DNA of 64,000 bases, taken from Cytophagales bacterium. GTDB taxonomy: Bacteria; Bacteroidota; Bacteroidia; Cytophagales; Cyclobacteriaceae. The notes beneath the pieces are model-generated. The model was not told the origin of the DNA and ran no database searches. It saw only the letters and a list, made by a program, of their open reading frames with translations. Of the stretch, positions 7,698-52,725 are shown piece after piece. The first letter of the stretch is position 1. Each line of letters opens with the position of its first letter. A program made the translations under genes and the position numbers. The stretch is taken from assembly GCA_022360015.1 (NCBI GenBank), contig JAKSDQ010000060.1, forward strand, positions 13,922-77,921. Direction: 5' to 3'.

Positions 7698-8486
7698 ATG
7701 GGCACCTCCGTTAATTCAATCATGGCAATAACTATCTATCCAAAAAAAGAACAGGCCAGCGGCCAGTTTGCAGCAGGAGCCATCAAAGAAAACAAGCCAA
7801 TCGGTTTTCCGCACGAGGGAGGCGAGTTAAAGCCCTTTTCTTCCTTGTTTTACTGGGCCCATGCCTGGTCCGATCAAGGTGGGTTAATCGGGGAACATCC
7901 ACATCAGGGTTTTGAAATCATGTCTTTTGTATTAAAAGGTGAAATTGAACACTATGACTCGCAGTTACAAAGTTGGAAAAGGCTCCGGGCTGGTGACATG
8001 CAGATTATCAGGTCAGGAAAGGGCATATCCCATGCCGAGAGATTTTTGCCTGGTGCGCACATCTTCCAGATTTGGGTTGACCCGGACTTGAGAAAAACCC
8101 TGAACAATCCCGCTACCTACAGCGATTACAGGGCAGACAGCTTTCCGGAGTCAAAGGAATCCGGTTGTGTAGTCAGAACTTTAAAAGGGCCTGGTTCACC
8201 TTTAACGATGAATGCCAATATTGAAAGTATCAGAGAGCTCCGGTTTTCCGAGGGACACCACAGAATAGAAATAAACAACAAAAACATGCTGGGAATATAT
8301 GTGACCGAAGGATTCCTCTCGTTGAATGAAGAGGCCGTGGGGCAGGATGATTTTGTATTGATCAAGGAAGAAAAAGAGATTTCTGTAAGCAATGAATCGG
8401 TTGCCGGACTGTTTATTATAGAAGTTCCTGATAATCCGGGGTATGAAACCTATGCCAATATGCAGGGTATTTCAGCTAAAATCTGA
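7698..8486 (+). CDS. Pirin-family cupin
   Basis: HPHQGFE...HYDS and GKGISHAE...QIWV pirin motifs; the true start may be the downstream Met (MAITIYP). Confidence 0.85.
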   Translation: MGTSVNSIMAITIYPKKEQASGQFAAGAIKENKPIGFPHEGGELKPFSSLFYWAHAWSDQGGLIGEHPHQGFEIMSFVLKGEIEHYDSQLQSWKRLRAGDMQIIRSGKGISHAERFLPGAHIFQIWVDPDLRKTLNNPATYSDYRADSFPESKESGCVVRTLKGPGSPLTMNANIESIRELRFSEGHHRIEINNKNMLGIYVTEGFLSLNEEAVGQDDFVLIKEEKEISVSNESVAGLFIIEVPDNPGYETYANMQGISAKI

Positions 8487-8526
8487 TTTTTTTTAAATAA
8501 ACTGAACTTAAGTAATTTGAATTCCG

Positions 8527-8558
8527 TTTGGAAACATAACAATTACCTTTTATATTTG
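8527..8558 (+). promoter_or_regulatory. sigma-ABfr promoter of the sulfur-assimilation operon
   Basis: TTTG (8527-8530), 20-bp spacer, TATATTTG (8551-8558); 30 bp upstream of the riboswitch. Confidence 0.85.
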
Positions 8559-8587
8559 GAACTTCAAGTCAATTATAAGGTAATTGA

Positions 8588-8700
8588 TTTATAAAGAAGC
8601 GCGGAGAGACAGGCTCTGTGAAGCGCTAGCAACCATATCAAAAAGATACACATTGATAGAAGGTGCTAATTCCTGATCCCGAAAGAAGGGAGAATATAAA
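8588..8700 (+). ncRNA. SAM-I (S-box) riboswitch aptamer
   Basis: P1 TTTATA/TATAAA; conserved AAGA-GCGCGGAGAGACAGGCTCTGTGAAGCGC P2, AGCAACC...AAGGTGCTAATTCC P3/J3-4, and P4 TCCC/GGGA. It lies upstream of Met/sulfur genes. Confidence 0.92.
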
Positions 8701-8711
8701 TTAATGAAACA

Positions 8712-8825
8712 ATGAAAAATAACACAAATCTTTTAACAGCCAAAAAAGCCTCACTTTTGAGCCCCTCCATTATTCATAATGAGAATGATACTTTAATGTT
8801 TGGGTGTTGTTGCTGTTGTTGCTAA
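8712..8825 (+). CDS. Putative hexa-cysteine leader peptide (37 aa, MKNNTNLLTAKKASLLSPSIIHNENDTLMFGCCCCCC)
   Basis: Manual translation: ATG 8712, TGT TGT TGC TGT TGT TGC at 8805-8822, TAA 8823-8825. Too short for the ORF track. Confidence 0.75.
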   Translation: MKNNTNLLTAKKASLLSPSIIHNENDTLMFGCCCCCC

Positions 8826-8965
8826 TCAATACATTTTATCTTTCATGAAGGATAATCTGGCCTGAGACAAACTTGTCTCAGCGCAATCAAATTACATCAA
8901 ATCAATAATTTTCAGAAGAAACAGGCGAAGGAGTTAAATCCTGAACCGCTAAAACAAAGAGAAAA

Positions 8966-9313
8966 ATGGCATTAATGATTACTGACGAATGTATCAACTG
9001 TGGAGCTTGTGAGCCGGAATGCCCAAATACGGCCATTTACGAAGGAGGAATAAATTGGAAATGGGGGGAAGGCAATGGATTGACAGAAGTTACCGATGCC
9101 CATGGAAATGTAATTGATGCACAAGAAGATCAGGAACCAATTTCGGAAGACTTTTATTTTATTGTCAGCGGCAAATGCACCGAGTGTGTGGGGTTTCATG
9201 AGGAACCACAATGTGCCGCGGTATGTCCGGTTGATTGCTGTGTTGAAGATCCGGAACATGTAGAAAGTGAAGAAATGCTATTGACTAAAAAAGAAGGTTT
9301 ACATTTAGTTTAA
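8966..9313 (+). CDS. 2[4Fe-4S] ferredoxin (YfhL/Alvin-like, with insertion)
   Basis: [12 protein letters not shown] and [18 protein letters not shown] cluster motifs. Confidence 0.93.
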
Positions 9314-9341
9314 AAGGATAGATTGCGACAGCGCACTAAAT

Positions 9342-10520
9342 ATGAGTGAATTTAAACACATAGAAACGAAGGCCATCAGGACACAAAATGGCAAGGCATC
9401 ATACAGGGAGCATTGTGCGCCGATTTACATGACTTCAAGCTTTACTTTCGAAGATGCTGAGCAGGCCAGAGCACTGTTTGCAGACGAAATCGAAGGTAAC
9501 ATTTATACAAGGTTTTCAAACCCCAATAATTCAGAATTTGTAGAAAAGCTTTGCTTGTTGGAGGAAACCGAAGATGGTATCGCGACTGCCTCAGGCATGG
9601 CAGCTATGTTTTCCAGTATGGCTGCGCTGCTTAATTCCGGAGATCATGTGCTGGCTTCCCGTTCGGTGTTTGGATCCACACATCAGATCTTTACCCAAAT
9701 TTTTCCGAAGTGGGGCATTGAACACACCTACGCAAATATCAACGACCCGTCAGATTGGGAGGGAAAGATCAGAAAAAATACAAAAATGATTTTCGCTGAA
9801 ACACCTTCCAACCCGGGTTTGGATCTGATAGATATGGAATGGCTGGGAGGACTTGCGGAAAAGCATGGACTTGTCTTGAACATTGACAATTGTTTCGCCA
9901 CGCCCATACTGCAACAACCGTCAAAATATGGCGCGCAAATTGTGACTCACTCTGCCACCAAGTTTATGGATGGTCAAGGCAGAACCATTGGCGGGGCAAT
10001 TCTTGGAAAACGTGATTTGATTGACAAAATAAGGTTTTTTACAAGGCATACCGGACCTGCCCTGTCACCTTTTAATGGTTGGATACTTTCGAAAAGCCTG
10101 GAAACCCTGCCCTTGCGCATGGAAAGACACTGTGAAAATGCCATGAAAATTGCTGAATACCTTGAAGGACACGAGGAACTTGAGTCAGTTAAGTATCCAT
10201 TCCTAAAGTCACACCCGCAGTACGATTTAGCCAAAAAACAGATGAGATATGGCGGGGGGCTAATCACATTTGTGGTTAATGGTGGTTTGGAAAGGGGCCA
10301 AAGGTTCTTGAATAGTCTGGAAATGTTGTCGTTTACAGCCAATCTCGGCGACGCCAGAACCATCGCCACACATCCGGCCTCAACGACACATTCAAAACTT
10401 TCGGAAGAAGACCGGAAAGTTGTGGGTATATCTCCGGGCTTGATCCGTATTTCTGTGGGTTTGGAAAATGTCAATGATATATTGGAAGACATCGTAAACG
10501 CATTAAATGCCTCTAAATAG
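9342..10520 (+). CDS. metZ: O-succinylhomoserine sulfhydrylase (Cys/Met PLP enzyme)
   Basis: YTRFSNP, ASGMAA, HSATKFMDGQGR (PLP lysine), HPASTTH. MetZ-like within the trans-sulfuration family; substrate is inferred. Confidence 0.8.
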   Translation: MSEFKHIETKAIRTQNGKASYREHCAPIYMTSSFTFEDAEQARALFADEIEGNIYTRFSNPNNSEFVEKLCLLEETEDGIATASGMAAMFSSMAALLNSGDHVLASRSVFGSTHQIFTQIFPKWGIEHTYANINDPSDWEGKIRKNTKMIFAETPSNPGLDLIDMEWLGGLAEKHGLVLNIDNCFATPILQQPSKYGAQIVTHSATKFMDGQGRTIGGAILGKRDLIDKIRFFTRHTGPALSPFNGWILSKSLETLPLRMERHCENAMKIAEYLEGHEELESVKYPFLKSHPQYDLAKKQMRYGGGLITFVVNGGLERGQRFLNSLEMLSFTANLGDARTIATHPASTTHSKLSEEDRKVVGISPGLIRISVGLENVNDILEDIVNALNASK

Positions 10521-10524
10521 AACT

Positions 10525-10629
10525 ATGAGAATAAAAATATACTATATCGCTCCCCTTTGCTTGATTAACCTGTGTATGATGGCTTGTTTTTGTTGTTGTC
10601 GAAACTGTATCAGCAGGGAGCATCTGTAA
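10525..10629 (+). CDS. Putative Cys-rich attenuator leader peptide (34 aa, MRIKIYYIAPLCLINLCMMACFCCCRNCISREHL)
   Basis: ATG 4 nt after the metZ stop; 7 Cys codons including TGT TTT TGT TGT TGT; TAA 10627-10629, upstream of a terminator. Confidence 0.8.
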   Translation: MRIKIYYIAPLCLINLCMMACFCCCRNCISREHL

Positions 10630-10657
10630 TTTTATGCAAGTTTAGTATAAGTTTTAG

Positions 10658-10689
10658 AGCCTTCCTGCTGACACGGGAAGGCTTTTTTT
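10658..10689 (+). terminator. Attenuator terminator before the sulfite reductase
   Basis: AGCCTTCCTG / CGGGAAGGCT 10-bp stem, 6-nt loop, T7 tract (10683-10689). Its 5' arm can alternatively pair with 10611-10620. Confidence 0.9.
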
Positions 10690-10725
10690 GTGAGTTGTAA
10701 TCAAAGTATTAAACAATCTATAAAA

Positions 10726-12885
10726 ATGACACCAGAATTAAATAACAAAATTTCAACCGAAGCGAAAGAAGATATTCGCGAGTTGGCAGAGAAAATCAGT
10801 CGTTTTCGTGATGGCAAGATAGACGAAGAGAAGTTTAAAGCGTACCGGCTTACAAGGGGCGTGTATGGACAAAGACAATTAGGTGTGCAGATGTTTCGCA
10901 CCAAAATACCTTACGGCCGGCTTACTGCCGATCAATTGACACGGATAGCCGATATCTCGGAGAAATATACGAATGGTAACCTCCATACTACCACCAGGCA
11001 AAATATTCAATTGCATTATGTAAAGTTGGACGACAGTCCTGCCATTTGGACAGAATTAGAAGAGGTAGGGGTAACAGCCCGTGAAGCATGTGGTAATACT
11101 GTACGTAATGTAACCGGTTCTGCGCTGGCAGGAATCGATCCCAATGAACCTTTTGATATAACCCCCTATGCTGAATCCGTTTTCAGATATTTTCTTAGAA
11201 ATCCAATATGCCAGGATATGGGAAGAAAGGTAAAGATTGCTTTCTCTTCCAGTGACAAAGACTCGGCGTTCACTTATTTTCATGATTTTGGATTTATTCC
11301 GGTTGTGAAAATTGAGGATGGTAAGGAAATCAGAGGCTTTAAAACTGTGGTAGGTGGCGGCCTGGGTGCACAGTCTTTTGTGGCCAGGACTGCCCACGAG
11401 TTTTTACCTGAAAACCAGATTATCCCTTTCACCGAGGCAGCGCTCAGGGTTTTTGACCGTTATGGGGAACGTGAAAAAAGGTTCAAAGCAAGACTGAAAT
11501 TCTTAATAGATGAAAAAAGAGGATTGGGATTGGAAAAATTCCTTGAATTAGTGGAAAAAGAACGTAAGGCCATCCCCCACCAATCAATTGAAATTGACAG
11601 GACGCTGGTACCTGAGTTGGTGCTACCGGAAAAACAGGATTATTCTGATGTGACTATTGAGGAGGAAGAAAAATATCGGGATTGGCTAAAATCAAATGTA
11701 TTTGAGCAAAAACACAAAGGCTTTCATGGTATCCGGATCAAGTTAACAAACGGCAACATCGATGCGGAAAGAGCCAGAAAATTATCAGGTATCGTCAGAA
11801 AACATGCCGCCGATGACCTGAGGATCACAGTTAATCAGGGCCTGTTATTGAAATATATACCAACCAGCGCATTACCTCAGGTATTTAATGAATTAAACGC
11901 CCTGGGCCTGGCGGAATTTGGTTTTGGCACCATTGCTGACATCACAGCCTGCCCCGGAACAGATACCTGTAACCTTGGTGTAAGTAACAGCACCGGCGTT
12001 GCAGAAGCCCTGGAAAAAATCATCAGGGAAGAATACAAGGATTTAATCTTTGATGCAGACATTCATATTAAAATCAGCGGATGCATGAATTCATGCGGAC
12101 AACACATGGCAGCCAACATTGGTTTTCATGGAAGTTCAATTAAAAACGGACAACTGGTTGTACCGGCTTTGGTGGTATTACTTGGGGGTGGGGTCGACCC
12201 TGAAGGAAATGGGTTTGTCGCCGACAAAGTGGCCAAGCTACCATCAAAAAAGGCACCACAGGCGTTGAGAATTATTCTGGATGATTATAAGGAAAATGCG
12301 CTTCCGGGAGAGTACTTCAACAGTTACTATAAAAGATATGGTAAAATATATTTTTATGATCTGATAAAACACCTCATTGATCCGACTCAGCTAACGGAAT
12401 CGGATTATATCGACTGGGGGGGAACTGATAATTTTGTGCCAGCAGTTGGTGTGGGTGAATGTGCCGGTGTCAGCTATGACGTTGTCGGAACGATCATCGA
12501 GGATGCCACTGAAAAACTGGCGAATGGTGAAAAAGATCTGGCTGCCGATGAGTATGACAGGACGATTTATAATGCTTACAATACGTTTGTAATCGGTGCA
12601 AAAGCATTACTGTTAAGTGAAGATATCAGATGTAATACACATATTGGTATTATCAGGGATTTTGACAAACATTTTGTTGAAGCCGGCAAATTAACGCTTA
12701 ACGAAAACTTCGAAACCCTGGTCTTGCAAATCAATCAAAATACACCAAATGCAGATTTTGCAAAGCGATATCTGAAGCTGGCCCATGAATTTTTGCAGCA
12801 GGTTAAAACATACCGTGCCAATCAAATTGCCGGTGATGTCACACAGAAAGAAAAGCTGGTGGTAGATAATTTTTATAAAGCATAA
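10726..12885 (+). CDS. Ferredoxin-dependent sulfite (nitrite/sulfite) reductase with C-terminal HEPN-like extension
   Basis: RLTRGVYGQRQ, TTRQNIQLH, CPGTDTCNLG and KISGCMNSCGQH siroheme/4Fe-4S motifs. Start moved from GTG 10690 (on the terminator U-tract) to ATG 10726. Confidence 0.9.
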   Translation: MTPELNNKISTEAKEDIRELAEKISRFRDGKIDEEKFKAYRLTRGVYGQRQLGVQMFRTKIPYGRLTADQLTRIADISEKYTNGNLHTTTRQNIQLHYVKLDDSPAIWTELEEVGVTAREACGNTVRNVTGSALAGIDPNEPFDITPYAESVFRYFLRNPICQDMGRKVKIAFSSSDKDSAFTYFHDFGFIPVVKIEDGKEIRGFKTVVGGGLGAQSFVARTAHEFLPENQIIPFTEAALRVFDRYGEREKRFKARLKFLIDEKRGLGLEKFLELVEKERKAIPHQSIEIDRTLVPELVLPEKQDYSDVTIEEEEKYRDWLKSNVFEQKHKGFHGIRIKLTNGNIDAERARKLSGIVRKHAADDLRITVNQGLLLKYIPTSALPQVFNELNALGLAEFGFGTIADITACPGTDTCNLGVSNSTGVAEALEKIIREEYKDLIFDADIHIKISGCMNSCGQHMAANIGFHGSSIKNGQLVVPALVVLLGGGVDPEGNGFVADKVAKLPSKKAPQALRIILDDYKENALPGEYFNSYYKRYGKIYFYDLIKHLIDPTQLTESDYIDWGGTDNFVPAVGVGECAGVSYDVVGTIIEDATEKLANGEKDLAADEYDRTIYNAYNTFVIGAKALLLSEDIRCNTHIGIIRDFDKHFVEAGKLTLNENFETLVLQINQNTPNADFAKRYLKLAHEFLQQVKTYRANQIAGDVTQKEKLVVDNFYKA

Positions 12886-12887
12886 TC

Positions 12888-13655
12888 ATGAACGGCAAAT
12901 TAACATTGGTAGGTGCCGGTCCGGGAGACCCGGACCTGATTAGCATAAAAGGTATGAAGGCCATCAAAAAGGCTGATGTCATTTTATATGATGCACTGGC
13001 ACATCCGGACTTACTGGAGTATGCCCGGCCCGGCACCGAAAAAATTTATGTAGGAAAAAGGGCCGGATACCACTCCTACAAGCAGGAAGAAATAAATCAA
13101 CTGATTGTGGATCGTGCCCTGAGAGGAAATCATGTGGTAAGGCTAAAAGGTGGAGATCCTTTTGTATTTGCCCACGGAAAAGAAGAACTGGAATATGCAG
13201 AGACATTTTCTATTGAAACAGAGGCTATTCTTGGCATATCCAGTGTTAACCTGCCCGGCTTATATGGCATACCATTAACCAGAAGAGGCGTCAACGAGAG
13301 TTTCTGGGTAATAACGGCCACAACCAAAGACGGAACACTTTCCAAAGATGTTTTTCAGGCTGCCCGGTCAACCGCCACGGTAGTACTGCTCATGGGCCTG
13401 AAGAAGCTGGACCAAATTACCGCCATCTATAAAAAGTCAGGAAGGGGTAATCTTCCGGCAGCATTGATCTCAAAAGGATCACTGGAGGACGGGAACATTA
13501 TTTTTGGCACCGCAGCCACGCTTTTGTCAAAACAACAGGAACACCGGCTGCCAGGTCCTGCGATGATTGTAATCGGGGAAGCGGTAGGCACTCATGAATA
13601 TTTCTATGAAAAAATAAAAAACGTGGAGCGATTCAATAACCATCCAAAATTTTAA
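12888..13655 (+). CDS. cobA: Uroporphyrinogen-III C-methyltransferase (siroheme synthesis; CysG methyltransferase domain)
   Basis: LVGAGPGDPDLIS, YVGKRAG, VVRLKGGDPFVF. Confidence 0.93.
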   Translation: MNGKLTLVGAGPGDPDLISIKGMKAIKKADVILYDALAHPDLLEYARPGTEKIYVGKRAGYHSYKQEEINQLIVDRALRGNHVVRLKGGDPFVFAHGKEELEYAETFSIETEAILGISSVNLPGLYGIPLTRRGVNESFWVITATTKDGTLSKDVFQAARSTATVVLLMGLKKLDQITAIYKKSGRGNLPAALISKGSLEDGNIIFGTAATLLSKQQEHRLPGPAMIVIGEAVGTHEYFYEKIKNVERFNNHPKF

Positions 13656-13659
13656 CGCT

Positions 13660-14313
13660 ATGGAAAGGCTGTTTGACAACAACCATTATACATCGCTAAC
13701 ACCCCGGGAAAGGCTGGAAAAACTATTCAGTGAACATGATGAAGCCAAAATTCTTGTGACCTCTTCATTCGGAAGCACATCGGTTGTGTTATTGCACATG
13801 TTAAGCCAGGTGAAGCCGGGGCATCCTATTCACTTCGTTAACACTGGTTTTCTTTTTCAGGAAACCCTTGATTACAAAAAACAATTGATTGAAAAACTAG
13901 GGCTTAAGGTCATCAATGTCAAAGCCAGGGAAAACCGTCACAGATTCACCAGGGAAAACCAAAGCTGGCGGTTCAATCACGATTTATGTTGTTTTATCAA
14001 CAAAGTGGAGCCGGTTAACGAACTGAGGGCCTCCTATGATGTTTGGATTTCAGGGCTACTCGCGTTCCAAAATGCGAACCGGAGCAAAACCCGCATCTTT
14101 GAACCTAAAAAGGATATCGTTAAATTCCATCCTATCATAGACATGACCGCCGCAGAGGTGAGTTTATATATGACGATTTACGAACTCCCCAGCCACCCTC
14201 TTGTGGCCGAGGGATACGAATCCATCGGATGTACCCATTGCACCAGAAAAGGAAAAGGAAGAGAAGGCCGGTGGTTTGACAAAACAAAAACCGAATGCGG
14301 CCTCCATGCATAA
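13660..14313 (+). CDS. cysH: APS/PAPS reductase; the CC...CxxC pattern suggests the 4Fe-4S APS-reductase type
   Basis: TSSFG, FVNTG, DLCCFINKVEP, GYESIGCTHCT, REGRW and C-terminal ECGLH. Confidence 0.92.
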   Translation: MERLFDNNHYTSLTPRERLEKLFSEHDEAKILVTSSFGSTSVVLLHMLSQVKPGHPIHFVNTGFLFQETLDYKKQLIEKLGLKVINVKARENRHRFTRENQSWRFNHDLCCFINKVEPVNELRASYDVWISGLLAFQNANRSKTRIFEPKKDIVKFHPIIDMTAAEVSLYMTIYELPSHPLVAEGYESIGCTHCTRKGKGREGRWFDKTKTECGLHA

Positions 14314-14423: not shown

Positions 14424-14957
14424 TTAAACGAATTGCGTTTTCACAAAAAAATCCCAGACCACAATCCCGATGCTGACAGAAATGTTTAAAGAATGTTTGG
14501 TGCCAAACTGGGGAATTTCAAGGCATATATCAGAAAGAGCTACGGCAGCATCATCCACACCAAAGGCTTCATTGCCAAATATAAAGGCATATTTTTTATC
14601 CTTTCCAGGTTGAAAATCCTGGAGCATCAGCCCATCTTGCACCTGCTCTATTGACACAATAATGTAATCCAGGGATTTAAGACGATTTATCAGGGTCATT
14701 GTGCTCTCCACGTGCTCCCAATCAACAGATTCCGTGGCACCAAGGGCGGTTTTGTGGATTTCACGATGAGGGGGACTGGCCGTAATACCACATAGAAAAA
14801 TCTTTTCAACACAAAAAGCGTCCGAAGTACGAAATGCAGCACCTACGTTGTTCATACTTCTCACATTGTCAAGCACGACAACTAACGGAATTTTTTTCTT
14901 ATTTTTGAATTCCTCGACAGAAATTCTGTTGAGTTCTTCGTTACTGAGTTTTCTCAT
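14424..14957 (-). CDS. TrmH/SpoU-family RNA methyltransferase
   Basis: VVLDNVRSMNNVGAAFRT, FIFGNEAFGV, IPQFGTKHSLNIS. Start moved to ATG 14957 because a TATCTTTG element at 14986-14979 overlaps the ORF-track start. Confidence 0.9.
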   Translation of the reverse strand: MRKLSNEELNRISVEEFKNKKKIPLVVVLDNVRSMNNVGAAFRTSDAFCVEKIFLCGITASPPHREIHKTALGATESVDWEHVESTMTLINRLKSLDYIIVSIEQVQDGLMLQDFQPGKDKKYAFIFGNEAFGVDDAAVALSDICLEIPQFGTKHSLNISVSIGIVVWDFFVKTQFV

Positions 14958-15048
14958 GTCAATGATATGGGCAAGGGGCAAAGATAATTTATAAAAGCTG
15001 AACCAATAAATTTATAAATAAACCTGAATTAAATCTTTAATACAGTCA

Positions 15049-50358: not shown

Positions 50359-52725
50359 ATGAAAAAATACCTTACTTTAGCTTATTTACTCCAACTGCTA
50401 AGTTTTAGCGCCTTTTGCCAGGAAAACGGAACAATTAAAGGAAAAATCATGGCAAATAACCAACCTCTACCTTACGCCTCTGTTCAGTTTATAGGTACTC
50501 ATCTTGGTACTAGTGCTGATAAAGGAGGCCACTTCATACTGGAAAACGTTCCTGTAGGAAAAGGTGTATTAAAAATCCGGTTAATAGGCTACCAGACTTT
50601 CACCAAAAGTGTCGAGGTGATGGCTGGCGAAACACTTACCGTCAACGCGACACTATTGGAGGACAACCTTAACCTCAACGAGGTCGTTGTCAGTGCCACA
50701 CGGTATGAACTCGACCGTTCCGAAGCCCCGTTGATAGTCAATGTGATTGGTCAAAAATTATTCAAAGCTACGCAATCCATGGCCCTGTCTGAAGGGTTAA
50801 ATTATCAACCTGGCGTCAGGGTAGAAAACAATTGTCAGAATTGCGGTTTTACACAAGTACGCCTCAATGGACTTGAAGGTGCTTATTCGCAGATATTGAT
50901 CAACAGCAGGCCGGTTTATAGCGCCTTGAGCAGCGTTTATGGTTTGGATCAAATACCTACCAACATTGTCGAACGAGTAGAAATTGTGCGCAGCGGCGGA
51001 TCGGCACTGTACGGGTCCAACGCCATTGCCGGTACCGTTAATATCATTACCCGCGAGCCCGTCGAAAACACCTGGGAGGTTTCCAATAACTTCGCCCTCA
51101 CAGACGGTTCAGCGCCGGACAATACCCTCAATTTTAATGGTTCATTGGTAAGCGAGAGCCTGAATAGTGGTGTGACCTTCTATGGAATGTTTCGTAACCG
51201 CGACAGCTTTGATGCCAATGGAGATGGGTTTACTGAAATCACCAAACTTGAAAACAACACGTTCGGTACCAAGGCTTTTTTCAAGCCCAACGACCTTAGC
51301 AAAATCACCTTGGATTTTAATGCCATCAGGGAATATCGCAGGGGCGGTGACCGCCTGGATCTTGCCCCTCACTTTACAGATATTAGCGAGGAGCTGGACC
51401 ACAATACCATTATCACAGGGTTAAATTATGATCTAACCGGCAGGGACGGTAGAAATAAGTTTTCCGCCTATTTTTCCACACAGACCACTGACAGGGATAG
51501 TTTTTATGGAGGTTTGGGAGGCGGCCGTACCCCGGAAGACAGCCTTACTGCCTTCAATGCCTACGGTAATACGGCTGATCTTTCACTTGTGGGCGGATTG
51601 CAATTATCGCGTAACCTCTCCACGGGCGATATTATCACCATAGGCGTAGAGAACCAGTTAAGTGATATAAGAGATGAAATACCCGGTTACAATCGTTTGG
51701 TGGACCAAAGGGTAAATACCATTGGGTTATACGGACAATATGAATGGAAACCGGTTGAGCGGTTAACAGCACTGATTGGTGCAAGATATGATTATACCGA
51801 CGTTGACGGAGAATATGACATTGGAAATATCGAACGTACTTCAGATGTCAGCGTCAATGTCTTTAGTCCCAGAATAACGGTATTGTACAAAGTGACAGAA
51901 TCCTTGCAACTCAGGGGCGGCTATGCCAGGGGCTTCCGGGCACCTCAGGCATTTAATGAAGATATGCACATTTCTTCTGTTGGCGGAGAACCGCAATTTG
52001 TTATCCTGGGAGAAAATTTGGAAAAAGAGCTTTCAGATGCCTTTACAGCCTCTGCTAATCTCACAAGGAACTTTGGCAATACACAAGCCAATATTCTCGT
52101 AGAAGGGTTTTACACTAACCTGAAAAATCCATTCACCTTTGTAAGCACCGGTTCGGTGTTACCCAACGGCTCTATCCTTGAAGAGGTGCGCAATGGCGAA
52201 GGTGCGTATGTCAGTGGTGCAAATTTTGAATTTAATGTATCCCCTTTCTCCGACTTTATTTTTAAGCTGGGAGGAACCGCCCAACAAACAAGGTTCGAGG
52301 AAGATCAGGTACTTTTTGAGCCCGAAGAAACCAATGAGGACGAACCGGTTGTGGTTACTGACGAGTTCATACGCAATCCTGATTTATATGGTTATTTTAC
52401 CACCAACTGGACAGCCACTGAACAGTTCGCTATCGATTTGACCGGAACTTACACCGGCTCCATGATTGTTCCCCGGGTGGTCAGCGAATCGGGTTTTCTG
52501 GATTTGGTGGATACGGATCCTTTTATGGATGTTAATCTAAGACTTTCATATCATATCGACCTGAAAGAAGATTTTCATATCGAGCTAAGCGGAGGGGTTC
52601 AAAACATTTTTAACAGCTATCAGGATGACTTTGATATAGGAGCTGAAAGGGATTCGGAATATGTCTATGGCCCGGCAAGACCGCGCACTTTTTTTCTGGG
52701 GATAAAAATCGGAAATTTTTATTGA
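50359..52725 (+). CDS. TonB-dependent outer-membrane receptor with a CxxC motif in the plug
   Basis: Signal peptide, CarboxypepD-like N-domain, EVVVSA TonB-box region, ENNCQNCG plug, GGSALYGSNAIAGTVNIIT, beta-barrel. Confidence 0.93.
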   Translation: MKKYLTLAYLLQLLSFSAFCQENGTIKGKIMANNQPLPYASVQFIGTHLGTSADKGGHFILENVPVGKGVLKIRLIGYQTFTKSVEVMAGETLTVNATLLEDNLNLNEVVVSATRYELDRSEAPLIVNVIGQKLFKATQSMALSEGLNYQPGVRVENNCQNCGFTQVRLNGLEGAYSQILINSRPVYSALSSVYGLDQIPTNIVERVEIVRSGGSALYGSNAIAGTVNIITREPVENTWEVSNNFALTDGSAPDNTLNFNGSLVSESLNSGVTFYGMFRNRDSFDANGDGFTEITKLENNTFGTKAFFKPNDLSKITLDFNAIREYRRGGDRLDLAPHFTDISEELDHNTIITGLNYDLTGRDGRNKFSAYFSTQTTDRDSFYGGLGGGRTPEDSLTAFNAYGNTADLSLVGGLQLSRNLSTGDIITIGVENQLSDIRDEIPGYNRLVDQRVNTIGLYGQYEWKPVERLTALIGARYDYTDVDGEYDIGNIERTSDVSVNVFSPRITVLYKVTESLQLRGGYARGFRAPQAFNEDMHISSVGGEPQFVILGENLEKELSDAFTASANLTRNFGNTQANILVEGFYTNLKNPFTFVSTGSVLPNGSILEEVRNGEGAYVSGANFEFNVSPFSDFIFKLGGTAQQTRFEEDQVLFEPEETNEDEPVVVTDEFIRNPDLYGYFTTNWTATEQFAIDLTGTYTGSMIVPRVVSESGFLDLVDTDPFMDVNLRLSYHIDLKEDFHIELSGGVQNIFNSYQDDFDIGAERDSEYVYGPARPRTFFLGIKIGNFY

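Follow-up and report, generated by a model that had tools for sequence, protein, structure and literature searches.

A predicted leader-peptide cysteine attenuator between metZ and sir in a sulfur assimilation operon of a Cytophagales bacterium

The analysed window, a stretch of 64,000 nucleotides (64 kb) from a Cytophagales bacterium, contains an operon of sulfur metabolism genes on its forward strand, which runs from a SAM-I riboswitch through ferredoxin and metZ genes to a predicted attenuator and then sir, cobA and cysH. The operon head and the structural genes comprise the following features.

8527-8558, forward strand: candidate operon promoter of the Bacteroidota type, a motif match with TTTG at 8527-8530, a 20-nt spacer and TATATTTG at 8551-8558
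8586-8702, forward strand: SAM-I riboswitch aptamer at the operon head (Rfam RF00162)
8712-8825, forward strand: first poly-Cys ORF (MKNN...MFGCCCCCC, then stop), 9 nt 3' of the aptamer
8966-9313, forward strand: YfhL-family 4Fe-4S dicluster ferredoxin gene (NCBIfam NF033683, 101.9 bits vs a cut-off of 86; Pfam Fer4)
9342-10520, forward strand: metZ-like PLP enzyme (Pfam Cys_Met_Meta_PP, E 1e-124)
10726-12885, forward strand: siroheme sulfite/nitrite reductase of the NirA family, sir, 719 aa (Pfam NIR_SIR and NIR_SIR_ferr; NCBIfam NirA family)
12888-13655, forward strand: uroporphyrinogen-III C-methyltransferase of siroheme synthesis, cobA (NCBIfam NF004790, 237.5 bits vs a cut-off of 198)
13660-14313, forward strand: phosphoadenylyl-sulfate reductase, cysH (NCBIfam NF002537, 209 bits vs a cut-off of 154)

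The candidate promoter is an exact TTTG / TAnnTTTG pair, one of only five on the forward strand of the window, and a sigma-70 style scan likewise selects it. The aptamer matches RF00162 over its full length (model positions 1-108) with 75.7 bits (E 8.8e-17; the gathering score is 44.4). In the first poly-Cys ORF the Cys run stands immediately 5' of the stop codon, and an intrinsic terminator is absent downstream of it. The top NCBIfam match of the metZ-like enzyme is O-succinylhomoserine sulfhydrylase (NF006003), whose 496 bits fall slightly below the curated cut-off of 522. The last three genes, sir, cobA and cysH, would be the first, second and third genes regulated by the predicted attenuator, which occupies the interval between metZ and sir and consists of the following parts.

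10525-10629, forward strand: leader ORF of 34 codons plus TAA with 7 Cys (MRIKIYYIAPLCLINLCMMACFCCCRNCISREHL, then stop), read from the sequence
10549-10566, forward strand: possible segment 1 (anti-antiterminator), weak, pairing with 10608-10621 in the minimum free energy fold of the naked leader
10585-10608, forward strand: regulatory Cys codons C21 (10585-10587), C23-C25 (10591-10599) and C28 (10606-10608), read from the sequence
10610-10626, forward strand: antiterminator 5' strand (segment 2), within the last leader codons and ending at the stop codon
10656-10685, forward strand: terminator hairpin with 5' arm 10656-10667 (segment 3), loop 10668-10673 and 3' arm 10674-10685
10683-10689, forward strand: T7 tract of the intrinsic terminator, read from the sequence

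An earlier note on this DNA had described a 34-aa ORF with seven Cys beginning 4 nt past the metZ stop, and the sequence at 10525-10629 agrees: because the TAG of the metZ-like gene lies at 10518-10520, the ATG at 10525 is 4 nt 3' of that stop. The start of the leader is nevertheless ambiguous, with in-frame ATGs at 10507, 10525 and 10576/10579. Position 10525 is GTG rather than ATG in the two closest relatives, and the ATGATG at 10576 is conserved. Bacteroidota are not known to use Shine-Dalgarno-led initiation, and the true leader start is therefore uncertain. The longest Cys run of the window leader is three codons, and frames homologous to it are present in loci L001 and L002. A mechanical ORF list of this region also contains minus-strand ORFs at 10513-10623 and 10701-10904.

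The terminator stem comprises 12 bp, 6 of them GC, closed by a loop of 6 nt, with an energy of -18.6 kcal/mol; it is unidirectional because the opposite strand carries no T tract. The strong terminator with a T7 tract that the earlier note had reported is thus present, although its stem limits (10658-10683) give way to arms at 10656-10667 and 10674-10685. The proposed pairing of CAGCAGGGAG (10611-10620) with CTTCCTGCTG (10661-10670) stands, both strands lying where they had been placed and the helix alone amounting to -14.2 kcal/mol. The full antiterminator combines 10610-10620/10661-10671 with 10623-10626/10655-10658 and reaches -26.9 kcal/mol when the terminator 3' arm is absent, which is more stable than the terminator itself. 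The terminator 5' arm overlaps the antiterminator 3' strand (10655-10671). When the RNA is free from 10609, folding pairs the terminator 5' arm with the leader at a probability of 0.84-1.0, and masking as far as 10624 or 10641 yields the terminator at a probability of 1.0; in the naked leader that probability is only 0.57. Classical attenuators have a segment 1:2 pause hairpin through which an untranslated leader terminates, and its possible counterpart here is the weak pairing of 10549-10566 with 10608-10621. Compared with 200 dinucleotide shuffles, the window antiterminator has a z of -3.0.

The trp/his-type geometry attributed to the locus is likewise found, with the antiterminator strand at 10610-10626, stall sites at 10585-10599 and the stop at 10627, and the same spacing recurs in relatives. 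Stalling had been assigned to 10585-10608; ribosomes at 10585-10599 would leave the antiterminator free, but one stalled at the final Cys codon (10606-10608), which stands alone, would cover it. Pairing of the Cys codons with the sir start region is absent in every fold examined. The sir gene begins 41 nt 3' of the terminator stem and its ATG lies 97 nt from the leader stop, so that nothing indicates that the sir start is directly occluded. Rfam yields no family match at E <= 1 for 10525-10689.

Comparison of 81 sulfite reductase (sir) loci from Cytophagales and Saprospiraceae/Chitinophagales reveals that the unit recurs. Terminators in these relatives were found by folding, and a search restricted to perfect stems overlooked many sites. 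A poly-Cys frame is present within ~600 nt 5' of sir in 74 of the 81 loci, a strong terminator lies ~26 nt past the stop of such a frame in 62, and 20 loci carry two Cys attenuator units in tandem. Cys-cluster frames in the regions upstream of sir number 108 on the forward strand and 8 on the reverse complement, a difference beyond chance. The clusters contain a median of 6 Cys (82 units), and Met codons are co-enriched beside the Cys runs, which are the sole peptide feature conserved across loci; other residues and peptide length vary. The distance from the last Cys codon to the leader stop has a median of 30 nt in the related units, that from the leader stop to the terminator stem a median of 26 nt (likewise 26 in the window), and the median terminator energy is -20 kcal/mol. 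Since the nearest upstream ORF lies on the opposite strand in at least 16 loci carrying the unit, the terminator is part of the leader and not of the upstream gene. Across 37 related loci, SAM-I is the only Rfam match.

The two alternative structures co-vary within this family. The sequence that follows the Cys run pairs with the 5' arm and loop of its own terminator better than shuffled sequences do (mean z -2.31 over 82 units), with z < -2 in 51 of the 82 units and z < 0 in 81; this strand extends to the stop from a point a median of 11 nt past the last Cys codon. Cognate antiterminator/terminator pairs are 4.7 kcal/mol better than non-cognate ones (permutation z -15.6, with 0 of 5000 permutations reaching the observed value); covariation in orthologous loci had been named as a check in the earlier note. 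When the terminator 5' arm alone was used, the signal was weak in the Cytophagales relatives, and it rose once the loop was added; in folds, the antiterminators of these relatives also involve the terminator loop (TATCCG pairs with CGGATA). Some close relatives (L005, L006, L013 and L016) have antiterminators no better than shuffles. A genome-wide scan for the design of a Cys ORF plus terminator returned four numeric candidates, and the only other one whose stem is clean and GC-rich and whose T tail is long is at C224:165559, 5' of a cysM / JAMM / MoaD-like / MoeZ-like operon, a result that speaks for regulon specificity. Runs of four Cys across the genome were mostly off-frame repeats within genes, and the terminator filter alone made the scan informative.

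These features point to a leader-peptide transcription attenuator, mediated by the ribosome, that responds to the supply of cysteinyl-tRNA and gates ferredoxin-metZ transcription into sir-cobA-cysH, a reading to which we assign a probability of roughly 0.8. That the element is a Cys attenuator is very likely, and that its only transcripts come from upstream, making it truly internal with no promoter of its own, is somewhat favoured. We infer that the leader is translated in coupling to metZ and that termination responds to cysteine in the following way. The leader ribosome probably comes from metZ, where it terminates before reinitiating at the ATG 4 nt past the stop; an alternative entry would be initiation at the conserved ATGATG at 10576. 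With ample Cys-tRNA, a ribosome at the TAA at 10627 would cover 10612-10626 and make the antiterminator strand unavailable, the hairpin at 10656-10685 with its U7 would form, and the polymerase would halt at ~10689, ending the transcript past metZ. With scarce Cys-tRNA, the ribosome would stall at 10585-10599 and leave 10610-10626 free to pair with 10655-10671 before the terminator 3' arm exists, and the antiterminated polymerase would continue into the genes for sulfite reductase, siroheme synthesis and PAPS reductase. General ribosome footprint sizes define the masking geometry in this scheme. Judged from the sequence, the sulfide-making genes are most likely transcribed only under cysteine shortage, by means of the short ORF and the switchable hairpin.

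The location inside an operon, 5' of sulfite reductase, which the earlier note had given, is borne out by a SAM-I-headed gene order that is conserved in relatives: SAM-I riboswitch, (ferredoxin), metY/Z, leader and sir, with the aptamer in the same position in 17 of 19 metY-linked relatives. It is possible, though unlikely, that the same Cys attenuator forms the 5' leader of a separate sir-cobA-cysH unit whose promoter lies concealed within the 3' end of metZ; in that case the hairpin would serve as both metZ terminator and sir attenuator, and the element would therefore not be truly internal. Units in Saprospiraceae/Chitinophagales do front the sir operon, with promoters of their own, and ~10 of the leaders in that position are preceded by an exact TAnnTTTG box, 53-87 nt 5' of the first Cys codon. 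In L006, L012, L016, L017 and L018 a gap of 46-186 nt separates the metY stop from the leader ATG, and one-mismatch -7 boxes occur in the window at 10478 (TATATTGG, with TTTG 14 nt upstream) and at 10448. A further weak promoter-like site is TAAGTTTT at 10648; the sites at 10478 and 10648 may be weak internal promoters. Physiology also favours induction of sir at low Cys even under high SAM, whereas a strictly internal element would leave sir off at high SAM despite low Cys, an awkward outcome for the physiology of the cell, unless it is offset by the first poly-Cys ORF or by a weak promoter. Against a hidden promoter, an exact TAnnTTTG -7 box occurs within 260 nt 5' of the leader in 0 of 20 metY-linked loci. 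Between the metZ 3' end and sir no consensus Bacteroidota promoter is present, only weak one-mismatch sites in 10250-10730. The motif scan also finds no consensus Bacteroidota box between 10690 and 10726, where a separate promoter would, according to the earlier note, have told against attenuation. The Bacteroidota promoter consensus has a spacer of 19-21 nt between TTTG and the -7 box, compared with 14 nt at 10478. A missing exact box is weak evidence, because the scan is insensitive and recovers an exact box in only about one in four of the loci that are bound to have a promoter. Stop-start junctions also tell against a hidden promoter: in 8 of the 20 loci they suggest translational coupling with metY, the leader ATG either overlapping the metY stop as ATGA (L007, L023, L024 and L075) or following the upstream stop by 3 to 8 nt (L008, L003, the window and L011). 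In loci without a leader, metY and sir are 30-69 nt apart and thus form one operon.

Two further explanations give the hairpin no attenuating role. The hairpin could be the ordinary terminator of ferredoxin-metZ, accompanied by a Cys ORF that arose by chance, with sir controlled otherwise, for example by a protein regulator. The terminator does sit directly past a gene end, AT-rich spacers often hold short ORFs, and the longest Cys run here is only three codons, but the comparative data contradict this explanation and leave it scarcely credible: poly-Cys frames precede sir in nearly all of the loci compared (74 of 81, vs 8 control frames), the ORF and terminator also occur together when the neighbouring upstream gene runs divergently, antiterminator and terminator co-vary, and the same genome has a second unit 5' of its cysM operon. 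It is very unlikely, if a little less so, that the poly-Cys ORF controls translation or Rho-dependent polarity, or encodes a Cys-rich peptide that binds metal or sulfide, and that the hairpin is incidental. Mycobacterial poly-Cys sORFs work on translation and without terminators (bioRxiv 10.1101/834739), the operon's own first poly-Cys ORF has none either, and the first-ORF Cys codons of Marinoscillum-type loci pair with the region just 5' of the next ORF start. A strong U-tailed terminator at a fixed distance, together with a matched antiterminator, in 82 units argues against an incidental hairpin, as do the 97 nt between leader stop and sir ATG. A functional Cys-rich peptide is rejected, since beyond Cys neither residues nor length are conserved.

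The predicted cysteine attenuator resembles the enterobacterial leaders trpL, hisL, leuL, thrL, pheL and ilvL in its short ORF rich in codons for the end product, in the intrinsic terminator 5' of the first structural gene with its mutually exclusive antiterminator, and in an antiterminator 5' strand that is masked by a ribosome at the stop and freed by a stall at the regulatory codons. It differs in sensing cysteine, with Met codons co-enriched by the runs, in belonging to the phylum Bacteroidota, and in being intercistronic, past a SAM riboswitch rather than directly past a promoter; there is no sequence homology. The leaders of Saprospiraceae relatives, unlike that of the window, do lie in the 5' UTR directly past the promoter, a difference that concerns architecture and not mechanism. 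In Bacillus subtilis, the trp operon within the aro supraoperon has its own promoter and an attenuator governed by the RNA-binding protein TRAP, with no translational hand-over. There, too, an attenuator past upstream genes decides read-through into a biosynthetic block, although the window element would act through a leader peptide and not an RNA-binding protein.

Other cysteine leaders are more distant in mechanism. The mycobacterial polycysteine sORFs (Ms5788A; Canestrari et al. 2020, bioRxiv 10.1101/834739) are leaderless and translational, their Cys tract pairing with the Shine-Dalgarno region of the next gene; an earlier prediction of mycobacterial Cys attenuators (Seliverstov et al. 2005, PMC1262725) found no terminators. 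They share with the window element a poly-Cys short ORF 5' of cysteine or sulfur-assimilation genes and a stall at Cys codons as the read-out of Cys, but in the window element a strong intrinsic terminator is accompanied by a matched antiterminator, and the ORF is not at the 5' end: when a leaderless start was considered, no promoter motif was placed to begin transcription at 10525. The predicted uORFC-8-2, 5' of cysS in Rhodobacterales (Brewer et al. 2021, PMC8632094), is likewise a ribosome-mediated attenuator, its uORF containing Cys codons and its terminator stem being accompanied by a U run. It belongs to Alphaproteobacteria, precedes a tRNA synthetase gene and has two tandem Cys codons inside the first stem, whereas the window element precedes sir-cobA-cysH and its Cys codons lie 5' of the antiterminator strand.

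Serial sensing modules on one transcript are also present in tandem riboswitches and in the two-ORF mgtCBR leader of Salmonella (PMC3641672); the modules in the window would sense SAM and Cys-tRNA and are parted by two structural genes. The composite of aptamer and first poly-Cys ORF, in which the ORF starts 7-11 nt past the aptamer and ends in a Cys run, is kept in 15 of 18 loci and also in Marinoscillum-type loci, where SAM aptamer, first poly-Cys ORF, Cys attenuator unit and sir are contiguous on one leader. We entertain, tentatively and at somewhat less than even odds, that the operon is a modular multi-tier sulfur sensor, in which a SAM-I aptamer with a poly-Cys ORF is followed, after two genes, by a second attenuator for Cys and perhaps Met. 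If so, sir-cobA-cysH would compute a combined logic of SAM and Cys-tRNA, and the intercistronic, translationally coupled leader-peptide attenuator would be of a kind undescribed for any amino acid. In the fused Marinoscillum-type leader, the pairing between first-ORF Cys codons and second-ORF start would form a relay between two leader peptides.

A cysteine version of this textbook switch appears to be unreported in Bacteroidota. A literature search, with most subscription journals outside its scope, found no published description of a Bacteroidota cysteine attenuator, which does not establish that none exists. Cysteine has so far been missing from the amino acids known to be read by classical terminator/antiterminator leader peptides, and its sole experimental case, in mycobacteria, is translational; the authors of that work state that uORF-mediated cysteine attenuation was previously undescribed (Canestrari et al., bioRxiv 10.1101/834739). 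The intercistronic and apparently translationally coupled leader offers a testable case of leader-peptide reading within an operon, and the element may serve as a compact cysteine-responsive part in Bacteroidota genetics. The design also provides a simple rule for annotating sulfur-metabolism regulators so far overlooked in Cytophagales and Saprospiraceae of marine and soil habitats. With its ~80 relatives, the element would show that Bacteroidota apply the textbook mechanism to sulfate assimilation, often in tandem or together with a SAM riboswitch.

The element at 10525–10689, a Cys-rich leader ORF with its terminator, lies between a metZ-like gene and a sulfite reductase gene (sir) within a row of co-oriented genes:

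8527–8558, forward strand: exact Bacteroidota-type promoter motif, TTTG-N20-TATATTTG
8586–8702, forward strand: SAM-I riboswitch, 75.7 bits
8712–8825, forward strand: first poly-Cys ORF, C-terminus ...GCCCCCC followed by the stop
8966–9313, forward strand: YfhL-type ferredoxin gene
9342–10520, forward strand: metZ-like gene, O-succinylhomoserine-sulfhydrylase-like, stop TAG at 10518–10520
10525–10689, forward strand: the element
10726–12885, forward strand: NirA-family sulfite reductase gene
12888–13655, forward strand: uroporphyrinogen-III methyltransferase gene
13660–14313, forward strand: cysH
14424–14981, minus strand: SpoU methylase gene, convergent, ending the gene row

Even with E <= 1 as the limit, the element matches no Rfam family. 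At 719 aa, the sulfite reductase exceeds typical CysI/Sir proteins by ~150 residues and reaches the curated cut-off of no NCBIfam sulfite/nitrite reductase model (top family NirA, 249 bits vs 523).

The leader frame, MRIKIYYIAPLCLINLCMMACFCCCRNCISREHL, contains 34 codons and 7 Cys, opened by ATG 10525 and closed by TAA 10627–10629, and agrees with the Cys-rich ORF that the earlier note described just after the metZ stop. Its start codon is uncertain, since in-frame ATGs occur at 10507, 10525 and 10576/10579. A consensus scan of 8400–11200 identifies a single strong terminator, a 12-pair stem at 10656–10685 (6 G-C, loop 6) followed by T7, so that the predicted terminator and T run stand, with a stem that extends two pairs further on either side than proposed; transcripts would end at ~10689. 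The two segments described as complementary, CAGCAGGGAG at 10611–10620 and CTTCCTGCTG at 10661–10670, are both present. The terminator folds with -18.6 kcal/mol, versus -26.9 kcal/mol for the antiterminator obtained when RNA from 10609 is folded without the terminator 3' arm (10610–10620 with 10661–10671, plus 10623–10626 with 10655–10658). RNA left free from 10609 or 10612 pairs the leader with the terminator 5' arm at a probability of 0.8–1.0, and RNA masked to 10624 or 10641, mimicking a ribosome at the stop codon, forms the terminator at a probability of 1.0; the folds thereby reproduce the mutually exclusive antiterminator that had been predicted. A segment 1:2 hairpin (10549–10566 with 10608–10621) is a possible, tentatively modelled candidate.

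These alternatives suggest how the element would operate. A cysteine-starved ribosome would meet the Cys codons at 10585–10599 first and stall there, leaving the antiterminator strand free; one that had reached the stop codon would cover the strand and allow the terminator to form. Stall sites had been proposed across 10585–10608; the effective ones would lie at 10585–10599, because a ribosome halted on the isolated Cys codon at 10606–10608 would already sit over the first part of the antiterminator strand.

Comparison of sir loci provides evidence that this arrangement is conserved. With the sulfite reductase as query and one genome per species, 80 loci were collected (81 with the window) from Cytophagales (Agaribacillus, Fulvivirga, Cesiribacter, Nafulsella, Marinoscillum, Ekhidna, Flexithrix and Cyclobacteriaceae MAGs) and from Saprospiraceae/Chitinophagales; the nearest of the 80 by sulfite reductase is Agaribacillus aureus (83% protein identity). 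Short frames bearing a Cys cluster lie within ~600 nt upstream of sir in 74 of the 81 loci, window included, and a single detector run on the same upstream regions finds 108 such frames on the forward strand versus 8 on the reverse complement. Under strict criteria, 62 of the 81 loci contain at least one unit (poly-Cys leader ORF plus strong terminator) and 20 contain two in tandem; 82 units were compared. The Cys run is conserved among leaders, and peptide length and non-Cys residues vary. The last Cys codon precedes the stop by a median of 30 nt (interquartile range 21–39), and the stop precedes the terminator stem by a median of 26 nt (23–31), exactly the window value; median terminator energy is -20 kcal/mol. 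Tandem double units in Saprospiraceae/Chitinophagales comprise loci L015, L021, L022, L025, L028, L030, L031, L034, L038, L044, L046, L048, L054, L055, L059, L062, L064, L074 and L078, and no SAM riboswitch is present in those tested (L022, L028, L046, L048, L055, L064). In L004, L014, L039 and L040, the poly-Cys frame and terminator upstream of sir lack an in-frame ATG, so these leaders either begin at a non-ATG codon or are decaying. Met is frequent near the Cys runs of the 82 units, for example at ATGATG 10576–10581 in the window (17.5% of the three residues before, 21.5% of non-Cys residues inside and 12% after, versus 5.6% elsewhere in the leader ORFs), and MM immediately precedes the run in 14 units; true start codons near the run or methionine co-sensing may underlie this enrichment.

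A further comparison concerns the antiterminator, for which the earlier note had named covariation in orthologous loci as a check. Pairing of the stretch between Cys run and stem with each unit's own terminator 5' arm gives a mean z of -1.84 (82 units, 200 dinucleotide shuffles). In folds, antiterminators of close Cytophagales relatives also use the terminator loop (TATCCG with CGGATA). With the loop added to the arm, and the upstream stretch limited to what lies 3' of the last clustered Cys codon, mean z is -2.31, with z < -2 in 51/82 units, z < 0 in 81/82 and -3.0 in the window. In a composition-keeping control with row and column centring, cognate pairs exceed non-cognate pairs by 4.7 kcal/mol, an advantage reached by 0/5000 permutations (z -15.6 for arm plus loop, -10.8 for the arm alone). 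The terminator arm itself varies by lineage, as in CCTTCCTGCTG, GCCTCTGCGG, CCCCGGGA and GCCTTTCCAGA. Because cognate pairing surpasses both shuffles and non-cognate pairs, the upstream strand and the lineage-specific arm vary in step across the 82 units. Where z < -2, this strand extends from a median of 11 nt past the last Cys codon to the stop codon, so that a ribosome stalled in the Cys run would leave it unpaired and available, and one at the stop would cover it. This geometry uses generally known ribosome footprint sizes.

The terminator might simply mark the end of the upstream gene; this is countered by a nearest upstream ORF on the opposite strand in at least 16 loci and by Saprospiraceae leaders with no metY/Z ahead of them. 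A scan of the 7.3 Mb, 42% G+C genome of the window for a Cys-cluster frame followed by a hairpin and T run yields four numeric candidates, two of them, including the element, with clean stems and long T tails. The second has its leader, MYKSFQTCCCSCCCFRYHGGKENHIR, at 165559–165660 of another contig (C224), and with its terminator (AGAAAGCCTTTCC...GGAAAGGCTTTTT) occupies C224:165559–165720, outside the window. It precedes a cysM-like gene, a JAMM protease, a MoaD/SAMP-like carrier and a MoeZ-like E1, a set that appears to resemble the CysO/CysM-type thiocarboxylate cysteine pathway.

Whether sir is transcribed only from upstream bears on the element's role. MetY-linked Cytophagales share the order SAM-I riboswitch, (ferredoxin), metY/Z, leader, sir, with the riboswitch found in 17/19 loci tested, and relatives without the leader have a metY–sir gap of only 30–69 nt (L037, L042, L073, L079). 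In L007, L023, L024 and L075 the first in-frame leader ATG and the metY stop share an ATGA; in four further loci this ATG follows the upstream stop closely (L008 +3, L003 +4, window +7, L011 +8); such junctions carry the signature of termination-reinitiation coupling, by which metZ would hand ribosomes over to the leader. No exact TAnnTTTG box occurs within 260 nt upstream of the 20 metY-linked leaders, and the window's internal region has one-mismatch boxes only, at poor spacing; ~10 loci with operon-front leaders have an exact box 53–87 nt before the first Cys codon. Against an internal position count the insensitivity of the motif scan and distances of 46–186 nt from metY stop to leader ATG in some relatives; moreover, a strictly internal attenuator would keep sir silent under high SAM despite low cysteine. 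On balance, sir transcripts probably come only from upstream, making the element truly internal, and an additional internal promoter feeding sir seems rather unlikely.

A second type of leader module recurs in these loci: a SAM-I aptamer followed 0–11 nt later (mostly 7–11) by an ORF whose poly-Cys run abuts the stop, with no intrinsic terminator 3' of the ORF. It occurs in the window at 8586–8825 (MKNN...MFGCCCCCC) and in L001, L003–L005, L007–L011, L017, L023, L024, L037, L042, L043, L045, L047, L050, L053, L056, L060, L061, L072 and L075. Its retention in >20 loci points to a joint read-out of SAM binding and Cys-dependent translation. What looks like a paralogue, a putative second SAM aptamer followed by a poly-Cys ORF (...HLSRCCCCYIIP), lies at ~52200–52548 of another contig of the same genome (C244), outside the window, and heads a third sulfur operon (metY of 441 aa, metX, hom). 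In Marinoscillum-type loci (L043, L045, L047, L050, L053, L060, L061), aptamer, first poly-Cys ORF, classical Cys attenuator (ORF2 and terminator) and sir directly follow one another on a single leader (~450 nt upstream of sir), so both modules share a transcript there. A CAACAA-like segment directly 5' of the ORF2 start pairs with the Cys codons of ORF1, and this pairing may represent a relay between the two leader peptides.

Previous work describes other arrangements. Cys-rich leader peptides were predicted in Actinobacteria with no terminators found (Seliverstov et al. 2005, PMC1262725), and in mycobacteria leaderless poly-Cys sORFs were shown to exert control at translation, in a study stating that uORF-mediated cysteine attenuation was previously undescribed (Canestrari et al. 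2020, bioRxiv 10.1101/834739); a 2026 Mtb paper still interprets these sORFs as attenuating translation (PMC13236596). For Rhodobacterales, a uORF with two Cys codons and a terminator is predicted upstream of cysS (Brewer et al. 2021, PMC8632094), and a transcriptome paper on Flavobacterium refers to leader-peptide attenuation of amino-acid operons, with no mention of cysteine (PMC9723704). A full-text literature search of incomplete coverage found no Bacteroidota cysteine attenuator.

Classical ribosome-mediated attenuation sensing Cys-tRNA, as the earlier note proposed, is the best-supported reading: its trp/his-type logic is supported by the parts, their energies, their conservation and the co-variation of antiterminator and terminator, and leader translation, ribosome transfer from metZ, termination at ~10689 and cysteine responsiveness are inferred. 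The element is neither leaderless nor terminator-free, and thus falls outside the mycobacterial class, which is both. At the sequence level it has the defining features of a trp/his-type attenuator and would work alike, but it would sense cysteine and belongs to Bacteroidota; unlike the textbook form, it is intercistronic, apparently translationally coupled and downstream of a SAM riboswitch.
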